The notes below the pieces were generated by a model. That model was not told where the DNA came from. It made no database searches and saw only the letters and a list, made by a program, of their open reading frames with translations. DNA of 22,508 nt from Nitrospinota bacterium (GTDB lineage: Bacteria; UBA8248), in the NCBI GenBank assembly GCA_046581755.1, contig JAYGFR010000205.1:1-22508 (forward strand), given 5' to 3'. Each line of letters begins with the position of its first letter. Position 1 is the first letter of the stretch. This document shows positions 7,630-16,019 of the stretch, one piece after another. The translations under genes and the position numbers were made by a program.

Positions 7630-10242
7630 ATGAAAAAGTTTTTCGACGCGGCGTGGGGGTGGGTGCGGTTCATTTTCTCTCCGGAGGCGATTCGCCCCCG
7701 GGAGCTTTCTTCCGGATTCCAACGGGAGAACCTTCCCGTCGCACTCTTTCTGACGGCCTTGTTTCTTTTTTATCAGCTGGCGATGGCGGGAAGGACCTAC
7801 AACCTCTTTCTCCCGTATGAGATCGGCTGGGAATGGCAGAAGACCCTGTTTCCCGTCCTGGGATTTTGGCTTTCCGCCTTGATCTGGTTTTACGTCACGG
7901 GTCTTTGCCTTTTCTCGAGGGTGGTGACTTTCCTCTCATCCCTCGTGTTCGCCTTCTACTACCTCTACGGCGCCGCGAATAAAGCCCCCGTCGATCTCAT
8001 GCTGGGCTTCGGCGAGGTCTTCGTCTATGTGATTTCGCCGTTCCTGTCCGCCGCGCAGGAAAAATCCCTGTCGGCGATCTGGGAGACTTTCCATTTCCCG
8101 GGGCTGTCGATCTACGCGTTTCATTTTTATCTTCCCTTCTATGTCGTTTTCACCGCCATCCTGACATTTGTTTATTACCCGGCGAGACGCGGCGCGCCCA
8201 AGAACAGGCCCTCCTCGGTGGACCTTGTTTTGTGCGCGGGCGTTGTGATCTTCACGGTGGAGTACATCGTGAATTTCGCCGACCGCGGGGACCGGGCGGG
8301 GCTCGTCCTGTGGCCGGACGTATTCATGGGAACGATCGCCATCCTCGTTTCCATCGAGATGTGCCGGCGGATACTGGGGTGGGTGCTGCCGCTACTCGGG
8401 ATCGCATTTTTCATGTACGCGCTCTACGGGAACTACTTTCCGGGGCGCCTCCTCCACAAGGGATTTTCCTATAACGAGGTCGTCGGCTTTATTTACGGAA
8501 CCGCCGGTATATTCGGAGTCATCGCGAACGTCTACGCCAGCTACGTTTTCCTGTTCATCCTGTTCGGGGTTTTCCTGGAAAAGACCAAGGTGGGCGACGT
8601 TTTCATCGATCTGGCCTATGCCCTCGTGGGGAGGCTGCGGGGCGGGGCGGCCAAGGCCTCCGTCGTCTCCAGCGCCCTGGTGGGCTCGGTGGTGGGAAGC
8701 GGCGCGGCCAACATCGTCATTACCGGAACCTTCACGATCCCCCTGATGAAGCGGGCGGGTTTCAAGCCGCACTACGCCGCCGCGGTCGAGGCGGTGTCCT
8801 CCATCGGCGGTCACCTCCTCCCCCCCGTCATGGGCTCGGCGGCGTTTCTGGTGGCGGCGTTCACCGAAACGGACTACGGGTGGATCGCCCTGATCTCGCT
8901 CGTTCCGGCGCTGATGTACTACTTCGCGGTCTACATGTCGGTTCACTTTCGATCCGGGATAGAGGGGATTCACGGCCTGCCCAAGGAGAAGCTTCCGGAG
9001 CTCTGGCCCCTCCTGAAAAAGGACGGGTACCTGCTGCTTCCGGTGTTGCTTCTGGTTCTCCGCCTGGTGATCGGCCGATCTCCTTTTGACGCGGCCCTGT
9101 GGTCCATCGTCCTGGGGATGGCCCTCGGATTTTTCCGGGACGACACCCGGCTCCTGGCTTTCCCGCCGATTCTCGCGAACGCGGTGGGCCTGTCCAAATG
9201 GAGCACGCGAAACGACCGCCTCGAATTCCGCGCCGCAAAACACCGGGGAAGCTTGATCGCTTCGGGAAAAAGCCCCGATGAGGCAGATGCGGCGGCGGCG
9301 GCCTACCTGGAGGCGGCAAAGGCCGAGCCGCCGGGCAACGCGCTGATGGAGAACTGGATGCTGCTGGCCGGCCTGGGCGTGCTCGTGCTTCTCCCGGCGG
9401 TGGGTTTCGGCATCTATGAGGCGATTTTCTGGGCCGTCCTCGCCACGGAGGTTCTTTCCTCGCCCCGGGTGATGGACGGTCTGGAGAAGGGGGCGAAAAA
9501 TTCGCTCATCATCGGCGTGACGGCGGGCGTAATGGGAATCGTCCTCGCGGGCATTTCGATGCCCGGCCTCGGCATCAAATTCTCGGCGATTATCCTGAGT
9601 TACTCCTTTTTCCTGGATCAGTGGCTGGGCATCACCGGGACCGCCCTTCCGGTGGCCATTCTGCTGTGCGCCGCCGGGAGCTACATCATGGGGATGGGGA
9701 TGACGATCACAGCGAGCTATGTCCTGCTCTCGATTCTCGCCGTGCCCGCGCTCATGGAGCTGGGCGTGCCCCTCCTGAGCGCCCATCTCATGATTCTCTG
9801 GCTGAGCCAGGACGCCTCGCTGACCCCACCCTTTGCGCTGGGCGCGTTCATCGCGGCGGGCATCGCCGGGGCCGATCCGATGCGCACGGGATTCGCCTCC
9901 CTCAAGCTCGCCAAGGCGCTCTACGTCGTCCCCTTCCTGATGGCCTATACGCCCATCCTCATGGACAAAAACGCGGCATGGGCCGCGATCGCCATGATCT
10001 GGGTGACGGGTTTCATGGGCTTTTACTGCACTTCGGCGGCGCTCGAAGGCTACGTCCGGCGGCATCTCCTGATGTGGGAAAGAATCCTGTTCGCCCTGGC
10101 GGGGGGGCTGCTGTTCTTCTACGTCACCTGGATGAAGATCGCCGGAACCGTTCTCATGGCGGCCTTGATCGCCCGCCAGTATATGCAGAGCGAAAAGACC
10201 GGGGCCGCGCCGATCGAAGCCGAAAGAAGCGCATCGGCCTGA
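7630..10242 (+). CDS. TRAP transporter fused permease (4TM/12TM, TAXI type)
   Basis: GIFG, GGAAKASVVSS, TGTFTIPLMKRAG, AVEAVSSIGG-LLPPVMG, GMGMTITASY and LTPP motifs; many TM helices. Confidence 0.95.
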   Translation: MKKFFDAAWGWVRFIFSPEAIRPRELSSGFQRENLPVALFLTALFLFYQLAMAGRTYNLFLPYEIGWEWQKTLFPVLGFWLSALIWFYVTGLCLFSRVVTFLSSLVFAFYYLYGAANKAPVDLMLGFGEVFVYVISPFLSAAQEKSLSAIWETFHFPGLSIYAFHFYLPFYVVFTAILTFVYYPARRGAPKNRPSSVDLVLCAGVVIFTVEYIVNFADRGDRAGLVLWPDVFMGTIAILVSIEMCRRILGWVLPLLGIAFFMYALYGNYFPGRLLHKGFSYNEVVGFIYGTAGIFGVIANVYASYVFLFILFGVFLEKTKVGDVFIDLAYALVGRLRGGAAKASVVSSALVGSVVGSGAANIVITGTFTIPLMKRAGFKPHYAAAVEAVSSIGGHLLPPVMGSAAFLVAAFTETDYGWIALISLVPALMYYFAVYMSVHFRSGIEGIHGLPKEKLPELWPLLKKDGYLLLPVLLLVLRLVIGRSPFDAALWSIVLGMALGFFRDDTRLLAFPPILANAVGLSKWSTRNDRLEFRAAKHRGSLIASGKSPDEADAAAAAYLEAAKAEPPGNALMENWMLLAGLGVLVLLPAVGFGIYEAIFWAVLATEVLSSPRVMDGLEKGAKNSLIIGVTAGVMGIVLAGISMPGLGIKFSAIILSYSFFLDQWLGITGTALPVAILLCAAGSYIMGMGMTITASYVLLSILAVPALMELGVPLLSAHLMILWLSQDASLTPPFALGAFIAAGIAGADPMRTGFASLKLAKALYVVPFLMAYTPILMDKNAAWAAIAMIWVTGFMGFYCTSAALEGYVRRHLLMWERILFALAGGLLFFYVTWMKIAGTVLMAALIARQYMQSEKTGAAPIEAERSASA

Positions 10243-10283: not shown

Positions 10284-11938
10284 TTAGTTAATCGCGCCGA
10301 AGACCGTTTTTCCGCCCACCACCGTCATCACGGGGCGGATGTCCCTGATCTCGTCCAGCGGGACTGTCATATAGTCCCGGTCGAGAACCACGAAATCAGC
10401 GAGCTTTCCCTTTTCGATAGAGCCTAGATTCTTTTCCTGAAAAAGAAAGTAAGCATTCGAGCGCGTGTGGGCGATGAGCGCGTCTTTCCGGCTTACGGTC
10501 TGGTTGTGAACGACCGACCCGTCGAGCATCTTGCCCGTAGTGGCCCACCAGAGCGAGTAAAAGGGGTTATAGGGCGCGCTACCCCGAGGGTGTCCGTGTC
10601 CCGAGCCCCCAGCGCACGCCGCTCGCCTGAATGGCGCGCATCGGCGGCAGGCCAAACGCCTTTTTCTTGCCGAATTTTTTGATCTACATCCGGCCCTGGA
10701 TGGTGGGATGGCTATGGATGGCCGCCATCATCCCAAGCTTCTTCATCCGGGCGAGGTTTTTGGGGCCGACAGCGTCCAGGTGGGCAAAAACCCAGCGCAA
10801 CGGTTTCAGGGGAGTGGCCCGATTCGCTCGCTCGAAGTTATCCAGTACATGGGAGCCGGTTTCATCGAGTGTGGCGTGCATATGAATGTGCCATTCCGTG
10901 CCGGCCGCGGCCCGCGCGAGTTCCAGCAGCTTGGCGGCGTGCTTGCCGCTCGTCTTGAACTTCCGGAAGGTGTTGTCGTGAAGGGGGCGGTAGAACGTCT
11001 CGCCGATTCCGATGAGACGGTAAAAGGTGTCCGTGCCCGAGGGAGGGGAATTTTCCTTGAGTTTCTTGAGAAGTTTTTTCGCCTTGGGCTGAAACATAGT
11101 GTAGAAGGTACGGACAGTCAGGTTGTTCTCGTTTCTCAGTTTTTTAAACACTTTGTAGCCGGACTTGTACCTTCCTCCTCCGCCCACGTCGAGGACGGCA
11201 GTGATGCCGGCGCGGTTGAGCTCGGCGGTAATGGCCCGGGCGCTCGCCATTTTTTCCTTGAATGAAAGTTTGCTGATTTTCCTCCGGACACCCCGCTAGG
11301 CGCGGCCCGCGAGCATGCCGGTGGCCTTTCCGTTTTTGCCGCGCACGATTTTGCCCCGCTTGGGGTCCGGCGTTTTGTCCGTGATTCCGGCAATCTTCAA
11401 GGCCAGGCTGTTGAGATAGGCCCGGTTGAACAGCCGCTGGATGTACACGGGGTTGTTCGGGGCGGCCTCGTCCAGCTCTTTCAGGCTGAAGCCCTTTTTC
11501 TCGTCGGTGAACTGATCCTCCGTCCAACCCACGATGACGGTGATCCATTCTCCCGGTTTCAGTTTTTTCGCCCGCGCGCGTATCATCCCGCGCGCTTTTT
11601 TTGCGGGAGGTCACCCCGTCGAGACGGACTTCCTGCGTCCAGTAGGTGGACTCCCGGATTAGGTGAACATGATTGTCGATCAAATCGGGGATCACGGTCT
11701 TTCCGCCAAGGTCGGTCACTTTCGCGCCGGCGCCCGCGAGGCGGCGTATCTCTGCGTTGGTGCCCACGGCTGCAATCCGGTCCCCCCGGACGGCGATAGC
11801 CTCTGCGGTAGAAAATTTCCCGTCCACCGTGAGGATCTTCCCGTTGACGAAAATCCGGTCCGTGGCGGATTGGGCAAGTGAACTGCCCATGCCAAATGTC
11901 AAGACGATTGCGATGAAGGTTGCTTTGGGTGCTCTCAT
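10284..11938 (-). pseudogene. YtcJ-like amidohydrolase (Amidohydro_3) with signal peptide; disrupted as given by 2 in-frame TAGs and 3 indels
   Basis: NGKILTVD, DLGGKTVIPDLIDNHVH, HMHA, FAHLD and GSIEKGKLADFVVLDRD...TVVGGK motifs across four ORF fragments; RBS GGAGGAGG before ATG 11938. Confidence 0.85.
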
Positions 11939-12213
11939 GCCTTCCTCCTCCCTGGAGCCCATCCGCCAATCGGTCCCCTCCGGACAGTCGCCAACACTTT
12001 GGTTTTCTGTGATGAGGCAATCATCATAAAGAAGTTAAAACCCCAAAGGAAGGCACACCGGGAAAGGCTCCTGGTCGCCCTGGCGGGGGGGGCTCGCCGG
12101 GGTCCCGGGCTTCAGGCGAATCCGGCCGGATTCGGGCGGGAGCGAATACCCTCTCGGGTTGCGGGAGGCCCCAATCGGTATGGTCCCATCTCCCCGGCGG
12201 AGGGTGCGCCGGG

Positions 12214-12762
12214 CTATTTATTCGGGATGGCGCAAAACCCCTGCGCCTCGATGCGGAAAAGATGGTTGAGCTTGGATCGGAAATTCTCGAGCGCAATGAC
12301 GCCGGCCAGCTCGACGAGCTCTTCGTCCGTGAACGAGTTTTGCGCCTCGGCGAATTCCGCGTCGCTCACTTCCATTCCGGTGGTGGTCATGCGCTCGGCG
12401 AACCCGATCGCGATTCGCTCGCGGGCGGTGAAGCGGGGGTCGGTCTCGAAGTTTTCGAGCGCGCCGATCTTGTCCATCGTGACGCCCTCTTTCATCCCAC
12501 GGGATGAATGGATGTCGATTCAGAAGGGGCACCCGTTGATCGTGGCCACGCGCACGTTGACGAGCGCCTTGAGGTCCGCGCCCAGCAGGCCGGATTCGTC
12601 CACCCCCCGCTGGAGGAGGTTCAGCCCGCGCATGATGGTGGGCCGGTGGGCGTAAATTTTCGAGGTGTTGAAGACGAAGCCGTGCTCCTCATTTTGGGTC
12701 TCGAACATCTCCCGCGCGAGGGGGTCTTCGGGCGAATCGGAAACTTCGGGGATGCGGGCCAT
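12214..12762 (-). CDS. Carboxymuconolactone decarboxylase/AhpD-family protein, probable selenoprotein (C78-x-x-U81), 182 aa
   Basis: ORFs 12520-12825 and 12214-12495 are in the same frame: INGCPF-TGA-IDIHSSRG...FTARERIAIGFAERMT...FTDEELVEL; RBS GGGAGG before ATG 12762. Confidence 0.88.
12481..12519 (-). promoter_or_regulatory. Candidate bacterial SECIS element
   Basis: mRNA after UGA reads AUCGACAUCCA-UUCAUCC-CGUG-GGAUGAA-AGAGGGCGUC: 7-bp upper stem, 4-nt loop with GU at positions 2-3, 18 nt from UGA, extendable lower stem. Confidence 0.72.
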
Positions 12763-12772
12763 GCGGGGCCTC

Positions 12773-12812
12773 CCATGAGTGGCAGCCGCCGGCCATGAAT
12801 GGCAGCCGCCGG
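12773..12812. repeat. Tandem 20-bp duplication (19/20 identical)
   Basis: ccatgagtggcagccgccgg (12773-12792) followed by ccatgaatggcagccgccgg (12793-12812). Confidence 0.9.
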
Positions 12813-12815
12813 ATT

Positions 12816-13274
12816 CTAGAGCCACATTCTGACGCGGCTGCGGTAGTCGCGGTATTCATCGCCGAAGAGGCGCTCGAGCGTTTCCTCCTCGTGGGGGATG
12901 AAATACATCTGAACGATCAGGGCGAAGGCGAACCCGGAGATCATCACGGCCGCCGAGACGAGCAGCCAGCCGATCCCCGCCATGATCAGCGCCATCCCCA
13001 GATAGAACGGATGGCGCGAGATGCGCATCGGGCCGCCCGTGATGAGGATCTTTGGCGTCCCCTCCGGTTCATGGGCGATGCCCGCCCCCTCGAACGCCTG
13101 GACCGCCCAAATCATCAGCCGGATGCCCAATCCGATCGGGAGCACCCCGAGCGCCTGGAATATCCGGCTCACCGGCGGCCCTTCTGGGGCCAGGGTATCC
13201 GCCGCGAGACCCGCGAAGAGGCAAAGCAGCGCGATCAGCGGCGGGCGGGTTTTCAGCAGATTTATCATCGGCAC
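12816..13274 (-). CDS. Isoprenylcysteine carboxyl methyltransferase (ICMT/PEMT) family membrane protein
   Basis: LITGGPMRISRHPFYLG and IPHEEETLERLFGDEYRDYRSRVRMW signatures. Confidence 0.9.
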   Translation of the reverse strand: MPMINLLKTRPPLIALLCLFAGLAADTLAPEGPPVSRIFQALGVLPIGLGIRLMIWAVQAFEGAGIAHEPEGTPKILITGGPMRISRHPFYLGMALIMAGIGWLLVSAAVMISGFAFALIVQMYFIPHEEETLERLFGDEYRDYRSRVRMWL

Positions 13275-13280
13275 TTCACC

Positions 13281-14676
13281 TCAGATCCCGCGCGCGATCA
13301 GGTCCACCCTGTCGGTGTCCAGGATCTCGCAGTCGATGATCTCGCCGGGGCCGGCCTCGGTTTCGTGCAGGAACACCTCGCCGTCCACCTCGGGCGCCTG
13401 GTGGCGGGTCCTCCCGCGAAGAAGGCCCTCGGCGGTCACTCCCTCGACGAGCACCTCGCACCGCCCGCCCACCAGCGCCGCGTTCATCCCGGCCTGGATT
13501 TCCTCCTGAAGGGAGAGAAGGCGGCGTAGCCGCTCGCGCGCGGCCTCCTTGGGCACGGGGTCCGGCAGCCGGGCGGCAAATGAGCCCTCCTCGGACGAGT
13601 AGGCGAACGCGCCCAGGCGCGTGAAGCGGGTCTCCCGGACGAAATCGAGCAGGGCCTTGAAATCCTCCTCGGTCTCCCCGGGGAACCCGACGAGCATGGT
13701 CGTCCGCAGGGCGCATCCGGGGATGGCCCGGCGCATTTTCTCGATGAGGGCGCGCGTTCCCGCCTCGTCGATTCCCCGGCGCATCGCGGTGAGCACCGGG
13801 GTGGCGATGTGCTGGAGGGGCATGTCGATGTACTCCACCACCCAGGGCAGATCGCGGATGGCGTCGAGAAGCTCGTCCGTCACCCCGCGCGGGTAGTTGT
13901 AGAGAATGCGGATCCAGCGGAGATCCTCCAGCCGCTCCAGGAGCTTGGCCAGGGAGTGGCCCTCCCCGATTTCGGTCCCGTAGCTCGTGATCTCCTGGGC
14001 GAGCAGGTTCATCTCCTTCACCCCGGCGGCGGCGAGCGCCTCGCCTCCTCGATGATGTGATGGGCGGCGCGGGAGCGGAACCGCCCCCGGAACCGGGGGA
14101 TAACGCAAAAGGTGCAAGGCCGCGAGCATCCCTCGGCCACCTTGAGGTAGGCGCTCGGGCCGGGTTCGGCGAGCAGGCGCGGGAGGCGGCGGCTGTAGTC
14201 CATCAGGGTGTCCGAGAAGGCCTCGCGCGCGGGCAGGGCGCTGCCGGATGCCTCGGCGAGGAGGTCCCCGATGCGGTCGTATTCGCGGGTGCCGATGAAC
14301 AGGTCCACCTCGGGAAGGCCCTGGGCCAGCTCCCCCTGGTAGCGCTCGGCGAGGCACCCCGCCACGACCGGGTTTCGAGCCGGCCCTCTTCCTTCAACCC
14401 GGCGAGGCCCAGAATCGTGTCGATCGACTCGCGCTTGGCGTCCTCGCGGAAGCCGCAGGTATTGACGATGGCGACGTTGGCCTCGCCCGCGTCGGCCACG
14501 AGGCGGTATCCCGCCCGGACAAGGGAGGCGAGCATGATCTCGCTGTCCACCGCGTTCTTGGCGCAGCCGAGCGAGACGAGAGCGGCGGTGGGGCTCCCCT
14601 CGGCGGCCGGGGGGGCGTCCCGGCTGATGACGGGCATTTGGGAAACGTCCTGGATCTGAAGAAACTCGCCGCTCAT
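13281..14676 (-). CDS. rimO: Ribosomal protein S12 methylthiotransferase RimO (two apparent 1-nt deletions, ~14370 and ~14040)
   Basis: [18 protein letters not shown]...[61 protein letters not shown] and QAPEVDG (TRAM) across three frames; ATGA overlap with the upstream stop. Confidence 0.92.
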
Positions 14677-16019
14677 TCCGGGCCCCCCATCGGCAGGGGG
14701 ACCGAGGTGCGGGTGGCGCCGGGGTCGATATGCCATTCGTCTTTCGGGTGGTTGAAGTAGCGGATGGCGACCTGCGGAAGCTCCTCGCCGAGGATGGTGA
14801 GCAGCCGCACCATGCCCAGCGATTCTCCTTTCTGGTCCGCATCGTCCAGCGTTTCCAGATACAGGGCCGGATCGATGCAGAGGTTTTTCATCTGGATGAC
14901 ATGAACCCCTGTCCGCCCGCAGAATTCGAGCAGGGCTTCCACCTCGGCCTCCCGGTCGGTGACGCCGGGGAAGACGAGATAGTTGAGCTGGGTGTAGAGG
15001 CCGGCCCCGGCGGCCGCCCTGACCGATTCCTCCATCTCGGCGAAGCCGTAGGTCTCGGGCCGGTAGTAGGCGCGGTGGCGTTCGGGCAGGACGCTGTTCG
15101 TGCTGAAGCGGATGCTTTCGAGGCCGGCGGCGGCTAGGCGGGAAACCCATTCCGGGCGGCTGCCGTTGGTGTTGAGGTGAAGAGTCCCCTCGCCCGTCCG
15201 CTCCCGGATGAGCCGGCAGGCCCGCTCGATGACGCCCGCCTGGAGAAGGGGCTCGCCCTCGCAGCCTTGCCCGAAGCTGGCGACGGCCTTTTCGGCGCCC
15301 TCCAGATGGGGGGCGCCGATCTCGGCGAGTTCCTCGGGGGTGGGCACGAAATCGATCCGCTCATGGCTCGCGGGGAAAAGATCGTCCGTCTGGAGGGAGA
15401 TGCACCCCCGGCAATCGGCGTTGCACAGGGGGGCGATGGGTAGCCCCATCTCCCAGCGCCCGGCGAAGAAGTTCTTGGCCGCGAAACAGTGAAACTCGGC
15501 CGCGCACCGATCCAGATGGGCGACCATCCGGTTTTTGGGGAAGCGTTTTTTCATCTCGGCCAGCCGGGCGGGCAGGCCCCGGTCGTCGTATTCCTCGGGA
15601 GCCCACCGGGGGCAATCGTCCACCTGGACGGCGGCGCAGACAAACCCTTCGGTTTCGGGGTCGAATCCAATTGCCGTATAGGCCCAGAGGGGCAACGCCC
15701 GGGCCCCCCCGGCGCGCTCGGCCACGGGAAGGAGGGTGCGCATCCAGCCCGGAGCGGGGAAGGTGCAGGCCGCCTGGGGGGTCTCGGGCCCACCGCCCCA
15801 ATCCACCTCATCGATCGTGGCGAGCTCGTCGGCATCGGGATCGCCCCCCACGGGAAGGCTGTCCGGTATCGTGAAGAGGCGGCTCCCATCCGGCAGGGGG
15901 GAAATCTCTCCGGCATCGGGCGCGACGGGCTCCTTGCCGAGGGCTCCGACCATCCAGAGGTCCGGGTGCTCGAACAGCTGCCCGTCGGAATCGGCAATCA
16001 CCATGAGAGGGGTTGTCAT
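14673..16019 (-). CDS. Radical SAM protein of unknown function with long N-terminal extension
   Basis: CNADCRGC (CxxxCxxC), [12 protein letters not shown] and HLNTNGS motifs; RBS GAGGAG. Confidence 0.9.

Follow-up and report, generated by a model that had tools for sequence, protein, structure and literature searches.

A predicted AhpD/CMD-fold selenoprotein gene, divided by an in-frame TGA, in a Nitrospinota genome

Results

The window (the whole 22,508-nucleotide stretch of contig that we analyzed) carries on its minus strand a complete coding sequence for an AhpD/CMD-fold protein, a predicted selenoprotein of 182 residues (12214..12762) whose reading frame is open from start to stop when an internal TGA is read as selenocysteine (Sec, U). 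The ATG start codon (12760..12762, minus) corresponds to the position at which orthologues begin with M-[A/P]-R-[I/V], and a putative Shine-Dalgarno-like GGGAGG (12769..12774, minus) lies 6 nt upstream of it. This GGGAGG also marks the end of a 20-nt unit that is duplicated in tandem (95% match, 12773-12812) within the 53-nt spacer between the stop of a PEMT-like gene and the start of the AhpD-like gene. The stop codon is TAG (12216-12214, minus).

A first-pass annotation, made from the letters alone, had pointed to a TGA within INGCPF*IDIH on the minus strand and had proposed that the two flanking open frames form one gene of 182 codons with Sec at position 81. Read directly, the strand gives ATC AAC GGG TGC CCC TTC TGA ATC GAC ATC CAT, with the TGA (12520..12522, minus) as codon 81 of the frame; 101 codons follow it up to the TAG, in agreement with the roughly 100 first estimated. 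The motif around the predicted Sec is G-C78-P-F-U81-I-D-I-H85, and the TGC for Cys78 (12529..12531, minus), which opens this CxxU motif, is invariant in all 21 aligned sequences. The annotation had also described the motif as CxxC-xx-xH. The TGA does occupy the column of the second Cys, but the histidine is not general: among 15 TGA forms, residue 85 is His in just 4 and Asn in 11, and the invariant residue is D83. Translation table 11 divides the same locus into two ORFs, 12825/12762..12520 and 12495..12214.

Several profile models recognize the read-through product. Pfam CMD (PF02627) matches residues 41-123 continuously over the TGA, with 50.7 bits against a cut-off of 23; this one domain across the TGA, together with Cys homologues that are single polypeptides, bears out the single-gene reading of the annotation. 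The AhpD core domain TIGR00778 scores 37.9 bits (cut-off 27.8). The peroxidase-related enzyme model TIGR01926, listed as an AhpD-like selenoprotein model in a review (PMC13188914), reaches 50.1 bits against a cut-off of 81.8. The best NCBIfam match is NF053654 (YciW-related (seleno)protein), aligned over positions 1-175 of 179 at 160.8 bits, below the cut-off of 310; nine TGA-bearing orthologues score 140-175 bits with the same model. As the window protein and its orthologues all lie far under this cut-off, we regard them as a sister clade of NF053654 and not as members.

An AlphaFold model built with 21 sequences is all-helical (pLDDT 92.2, pTM 0.87) and places U81 in the first turn of a helix spanning residues 79-91. 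Foldseek finds the AhpD-core structures 2prr and 6k40 at a TMq of 0.84, and a profile search of PDB sequences returns 16 CxxC relatives (top match 2gmy, E 4e-27) whose second Cys falls on the U column. In the 21-sequence alignment, D83, E115, E151 and F176-C177 are the same in every Sec and Cys form. The TGC for Cys177 (12232..12234, minus) closes a C-terminal G-F-C that is found in 22/22 and 21/21 sequences of both forms. This G175-F176-C177 segment (12232-12240, minus) lies outside the region aligned to solved structures, and its cysteine may be a third redox residue.

We compared the locus with 20 related loci from species-representative genomes. Codon 81 is TGA in 14 of these (L016-L029), which represent at least four phyla (Nitrospinota, Dehalococcoidia, Rokubacteria/Methylomirabilota and Binatia); in five more distant relatives (L030, L032-L035) the column holds TGT or TGC, and the remaining locus, L031, is unreadable in one frame. 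TGA and Cys codons thus alternate at this column. L031 itself (Thermoleophilia; a tblastn match of 35% identity) has many stops in the frame read and is broken or frame-shifted. Among the genomes of 30 relatives, the nine closest orthologues (56-75% identity) contain exactly one TGA each.

Protein databases reflect the split that the first-pass annotation had anticipated of gene callers. Among the best 120 of 479 database relatives, only 10 span the full length; the other 110 are C-terminal fragments (100-129 aa) that cover 48-55% of the query; in a sample alignment the fragments start directly past the U column or at Met89. At the U column the full-length entries show C (4), W (2), G, S and L, with one garbled. 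Cys stands there in P0013, P0014, P0015 and P0018 as well as in L030, L032, L033, L034 and L035, and these Cys homologues are single chains, not pairs of separate proteins. Entries P0002, P0003, P0005, P0006 and P0010 show W, W, G, S and L, respectively; here the depositing pipelines probably translated TGA under another genetic code.

Conservation includes residues 82-88, which separate the TGA from the internal ATG. In 15 pairs drawn from six sequences, dN/dS ranges over 0.12-0.53 downstream of the TGA and over 0.30-0.69 upstream of it. Ratios as low past the TGA as before it indicate that the downstream half is translated in the frame that reads through the TGA, and this half is under purifying selection. 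In the tree, the window protein groups with the Nitrospinota orthologues (support 100/97). The tree needs one or two switches between Sec and Cys, with one change sufficient in 41% of bootstrap trees and L034 forming a long branch; on this topology a single origin of the Sec forms may be compatible with the data.

Downstream of the UGA lies an apical SECIS-like hairpin (12491..12508, minus) with a 7-bp stem, UUCAUCC/GGAUGAA, and the loop CGUG (12501-12498), which is in register in 15/15 TGA forms. An extended stem-loop with a lower stem (GAC.AUC ... GAG..GUC; 12481..12516, minus) is predicted at -13.5 kcal/mol; the lower-stem extension is also predicted in L016 and L017, and in L018 it is one pair shorter. 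The hairpin was part of the original annotation, which set it 18 nt after the UGA with GU in the apical loop. The hairpin and its loop are as described, G at loop position 2 being followed by U, but the stem already begins at 11 nt, and it is the loop that follows at 18 nt.

The published bSECIS model, as its criteria are worded in PMC13188914, calls for a loop of 3-9 nt on an upper stem of 4-16 bp, a G at loop position 1 or 2, mostly with G or U next to it, a UGA-to-apical-loop distance of 16-37 nt, and a minimum free energy (MFE) of -7.5 kcal/mol or lower. The element has a 4-nt loop and a 7-bp stem; the loops across the 15 sequences are CGUG, AGUG or CGGG; and the spacing from UGA to loop is 18 nt in all 15. 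For the energy, the outcome depends on what is counted, as the apical hairpin alone has -7.1 kcal/mol and the hairpin with its lower stem -13.5, and the wording of the criteria is silent on which part counts. Under strict scoring, 165 of 2202 random TGAs of the genome pass (7.5%), and the window element and those of L016-L019 do not. A looser scoring that includes lower stems was dropped as evidence because 215 of 435 random TGAs (49%) pass it. In this GC-rich genome, the bSECIS criteria have little specificity.

Single-sequence thermodynamics was likewise set aside as support for the hairpin, with a fold z-score of -0.70 (50 of 200 shuffles fold equally well) and the strict energy threshold missed by 0.4 kcal/mol. 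Comparison across sequences is more informative. Among the 15 TGA forms, 95.9% of cells are paired in register, versus 33-54% when the partner strand is slid by 1-3 columns; three of the seven stem pairs are changed on both sides, and none of 500 shuffles matches the observed pairing or covariation score. The fold is thus conserved in register with compensatory pairs, whereas the energy of the single sequence is unremarkable. The main compensatory pair (U-A versus G-C) follows clade boundaries and so represents few independent events. The peptide encoded by the hairpin (S/A-S/F-R-G-M) is fixed in the TGA forms only and variable in the Cys forms; constraint on the protein may contribute to the conservation of the hairpin. 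When the Cys-form motifs are folded in the same register, the energy is positive in 5 of 6. The Cys form L030 (Thermoleophilia) has a hairpin of -7.1 kcal/mol in the same register after its TGT, which is either a remnant of a former SECIS or chance. No alternative structure is common to the 15 TGA-form sequences. Rfam gave no match anywhere in the window at gathering thresholds, which places the hairpin outside any curated RNA family.

The genome encodes the machinery for Sec insertion, that is, selA, selB and selD together with a tRNA for Sec (selC). The genes selA (569.8 bits) and selB (374.7 bits) are adjacent on contig C136, and selD (335.4 bits) lies at C268:4596-5561 on the minus strand, all above their cut-offs. 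Among 44 tRNAs, ARAGORN reports one tRNA-SeC with anticodon tca (C264:1657-1753). The selD frame has one in-frame TGA, which suggests that selD itself probably encodes a selenoprotein. Release factor RF2 is present (491.5 bits, above cut-off); outside selenoprotein genes TGA therefore acts as an ordinary stop rather than a reassigned codon.

The same genome contains 17 AhpD/CMD-like matches, of which 14 have one TGA, 13 of them at the CxxU column. The 12 further CxxU genes of this fold are on contigs C213, C231, C284, C247, C225, C42, C215, C369, C251, C110, C94 and C398. Most CxxU paralogues are of a CxY-U-LxHN type and share a GCUYGGUCRAGC-like hairpin about 20 nt after the UGA. The paralogue closest to the window gene is a Cys form on C118 (CEFCTQMH) with 30% identity. 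Around the window gene, RimO, the PEMT-like methyltransferase and the AhpD-like gene follow each other in this order in L016 and L017 as in the window; the neighbors in Rokubacteria, Binatia and Dehalococcoidia are unrelated (peptidase M28, a luciferase-like monooxygenase and others). As the gene order is not kept in other phyla, we draw no functional link from it.

The TGA at 12520-12522 is kept in contigs from five independent studies (runs X3, X5, X10, X6 and X12), the support here coming from assembled contigs and not from raw reads. Within the gene these independent contigs differ only at 12270 (L165F) and at 12295 and 12433 (both synonymous). An RNA contig (run X15) was considered as evidence of transcription and rejected, as it spans only 12662-12887 and falls short of the TGA and of the whole gene.

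Both genes flanking the AhpD-like gene show indel differences from independent assemblies. On one side, a rimO homologue (13284-14880, minus) occupies three reading frames and is interrupted near 14042-14066 and 14311-14401. All three independent assemblies that cover the first site have an extra G after 14042, which makes that break specific to this assembly, either as an assembly error or as a strain variant; for the break at 14311-14401, the independent assemblies list no indel. On the other side, an Amidohydro_3-family gene (10284-11962, minus) is scattered over several frames, and there the independent assemblies show indels of 1-2 nt at two places, 10574-10600 and 11596. The broken amidohydrolase segment lies between the copies of a 32-nt direct repeat (91% identical; 10076-10107 and 12060-12091). 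The X5 and X10 contigs have loose ends at 12060, and contigs from three runs join both repeat copies. These features hint that the region immediately past the 3' end of the AhpD-like gene is structurally variable or ambiguously assembled.

Discussion

We interpret the minus-strand segment 12762..12214 as a single AhpD/CMD-fold gene in which the TGA at codon 81 is predicted to be decoded as Sec, likely under the guidance of the hairpin, and we put the probability of this reading at about 0.92. An obvious concern, given the indels in both flanking genes relative to independent assemblies, is that the TGA is a nonsense mutation or a sequencing error in a pseudogene or in a misassembled Cys form. 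A TGA at this very column in 14 other genomes of several phyla and in the nine closest orthologues, its retention in the contigs of five studies, and the purifying selection on the downstream half already largely refute this idea, to which we give hardly any credence. The notion that TGA is an ordinary sense codon in this organism (genetic code 4 or 25), which might be suggested by the W or G at the TGA column in some database entries of relatives, is practically refuted by the RF2 gene; the selA, selB and selD frames hold only the one internal TGA, in selD, and the genome has dedicated Sec machinery.

The UGA could also simply terminate translation, to give an N-terminal product of 80 residues and a separate C-terminal product of about 93 residues from the internal ATG (12495). 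An ATG-started ORF at 12495..12214 does exist, databases hold hundreds of such C-terminal gene calls, and some termination at the UGA is to be expected with RF2 present. As the main fate of the message we nevertheless consider this very unlikely: neither the CMD domain nor the predicted helices are interrupted at the TGA, the Cys homologues and every solved relative consist of one chain, termination would separate the two redox residues of the active-site motif, and the stretch from the TGA to the internal ATG is conserved. A subtler alternative, improbable in our view, accepts Sec insertion and questions only the hairpin at 12508-12491, whose conservation would come from the peptide SSRGMK while the true SECIS is another or a larger element. 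The stem does sit in codons of conserved residues, the hairpin alone reaches only -7.1 kcal/mol, the published criteria discriminate poorly in this genome, and its CxxU paralogues use a different hairpin consensus. Against this, the peptide is conserved in TGA forms and variable in Cys forms, the loop sequence and the 18-nt spacing agree with the published model, and the 15 sequences share no other structure; in L020 the pairing is kept, with a non-synonymous UCC->UUC matched by a synonymous GGG->GGA.

If codon 81 is decoded as Sec, the SelA/SelB/SelD/tRNA-Sec machinery of the genome would carry this out. SelB with Sec-tRNA(Sec) would recognize the hairpin, whose apical loop of 4 nt begins 18 nt after the UGA and carries the G-U, and would presumably compete with RF2 at that codon. 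The encoded enzyme would act as a CxxU thiol/selenol oxidoreductase. In M. tuberculosis AhpD, the nucleophile is the second Cys of the motif; U81, at the N-terminus of the helix 79-91, would likewise be the likely attacking residue. C78 would then likely resolve it through a selenenylsulfide, to be re-reduced by a cellular thiol system. By analogy with solved relatives, the substrate may be a peroxiredoxin partner, a hydroperoxide or another electrophile.

Such proteins are not new as a kind, as the first-pass annotation had noted: the family is abundant and already catalogued. The Sargasso Sea data of 2005 contained AhpD-like CxxU selenoproteins (27 sequences, COG2128; PMC1088965), the GOS survey of 2008 gives AhpD-like 1 (299 sequences) and AhpD-like 2 (70 sequences; pfam02627) (PMC2398784), and a 2026 review names several AhpD-type selenoprotein models (PMC13188914). 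The window protein shares with this family the AhpD/CMD fold with Sec at the second CxxC position (C78-P-F-U81), widespread Cys homologues whose Cys aligns to the TGA, a SECIS-like hairpin after the UGA and a marine metagenomic origin. Its provisional placement as AhpD-like 1 rather than AhpD-like 2 goes by length and by the source names of homologues ("alkylhydroperoxidase family enzyme"). The window gene is a further member of the kind known since 2005. Its closest curated counterpart, NF053654 (GroundWater_YciW), aligns end to end and is likewise a Sec/Cys family, with the window protein scoring below its cut-off.

Among proteins of known structure, the CxxC AhpD-core proteins 2gmy (Atu0492), 2o4d/2ijc (PA0269), 7xw1, 2prr and 6k40 (D. 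radiodurans AhpD) have the same fold (TMq 0.68-0.84), but all are Cys forms, with 19-26% identity to the window protein. The short ones among them are without its first ~38 residues, and the G-F-C177 tail is left uncovered because none aligns past residue ~171. The debrominase Bmp8 (6ohi, 6ohj) matches residues 10-170 (E 8e-24, TMq 0.78-0.79, 19% identity), and its fold supports thiol-based chemistry beyond peroxide reduction. There are no bmp-type neighbors beside the window gene, and by this analogy a dehalogenase role is only a possibility. M. tuberculosis AhpD (1knc, 1gu9), the CxxC-xxx-H prototype, matches the fold only weakly (TMq 0.55-0.57, E 0.2-0.3), and the counterpart of its motif His is the H85 that only a minority of the TGA forms in the window clade retain; no ahpC lies beside the window gene.

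More tentatively, the gene may represent an uncurated clade of AhpD-fold selenoproteins, sister to NF053654, that occurs in Nitrospinota, Rokubacteria, Binatia and Dehalococcoidia. Such a clade would be marked by CPF-U-[IMV]-D, by a SECIS that dictates SRGM in the protein, and by the invariant G-F-C177, which could possibly relay with C78 and U81 (Cys/Sec/Cys), and the window gene would be the odd one out among the 13 CxxU AhpD-fold paralogues of one genome. We hold this proposal to be possible, though well short of probable.

Conclusions

The practical value of the finding lies in annotation. Standard gene callers cut the gene at the UGA, and some of the resulting fragments bear the name "hypothetical protein"; for this reason, unless Sec-aware tools are applied, selenoprotein counts come out too low in marine Nitrospinota and in soil or groundwater Rokubacteria. 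In the BSepDB account of the organisms richest in selenoproteins, three Nitrospinota MAGs with 48-54 selenoprotein genes are among the top ten (PMC13326102). The window gene adds one more predicted Sec-dependent redox enzyme to a lineage already reported to be selenoprotein-rich.
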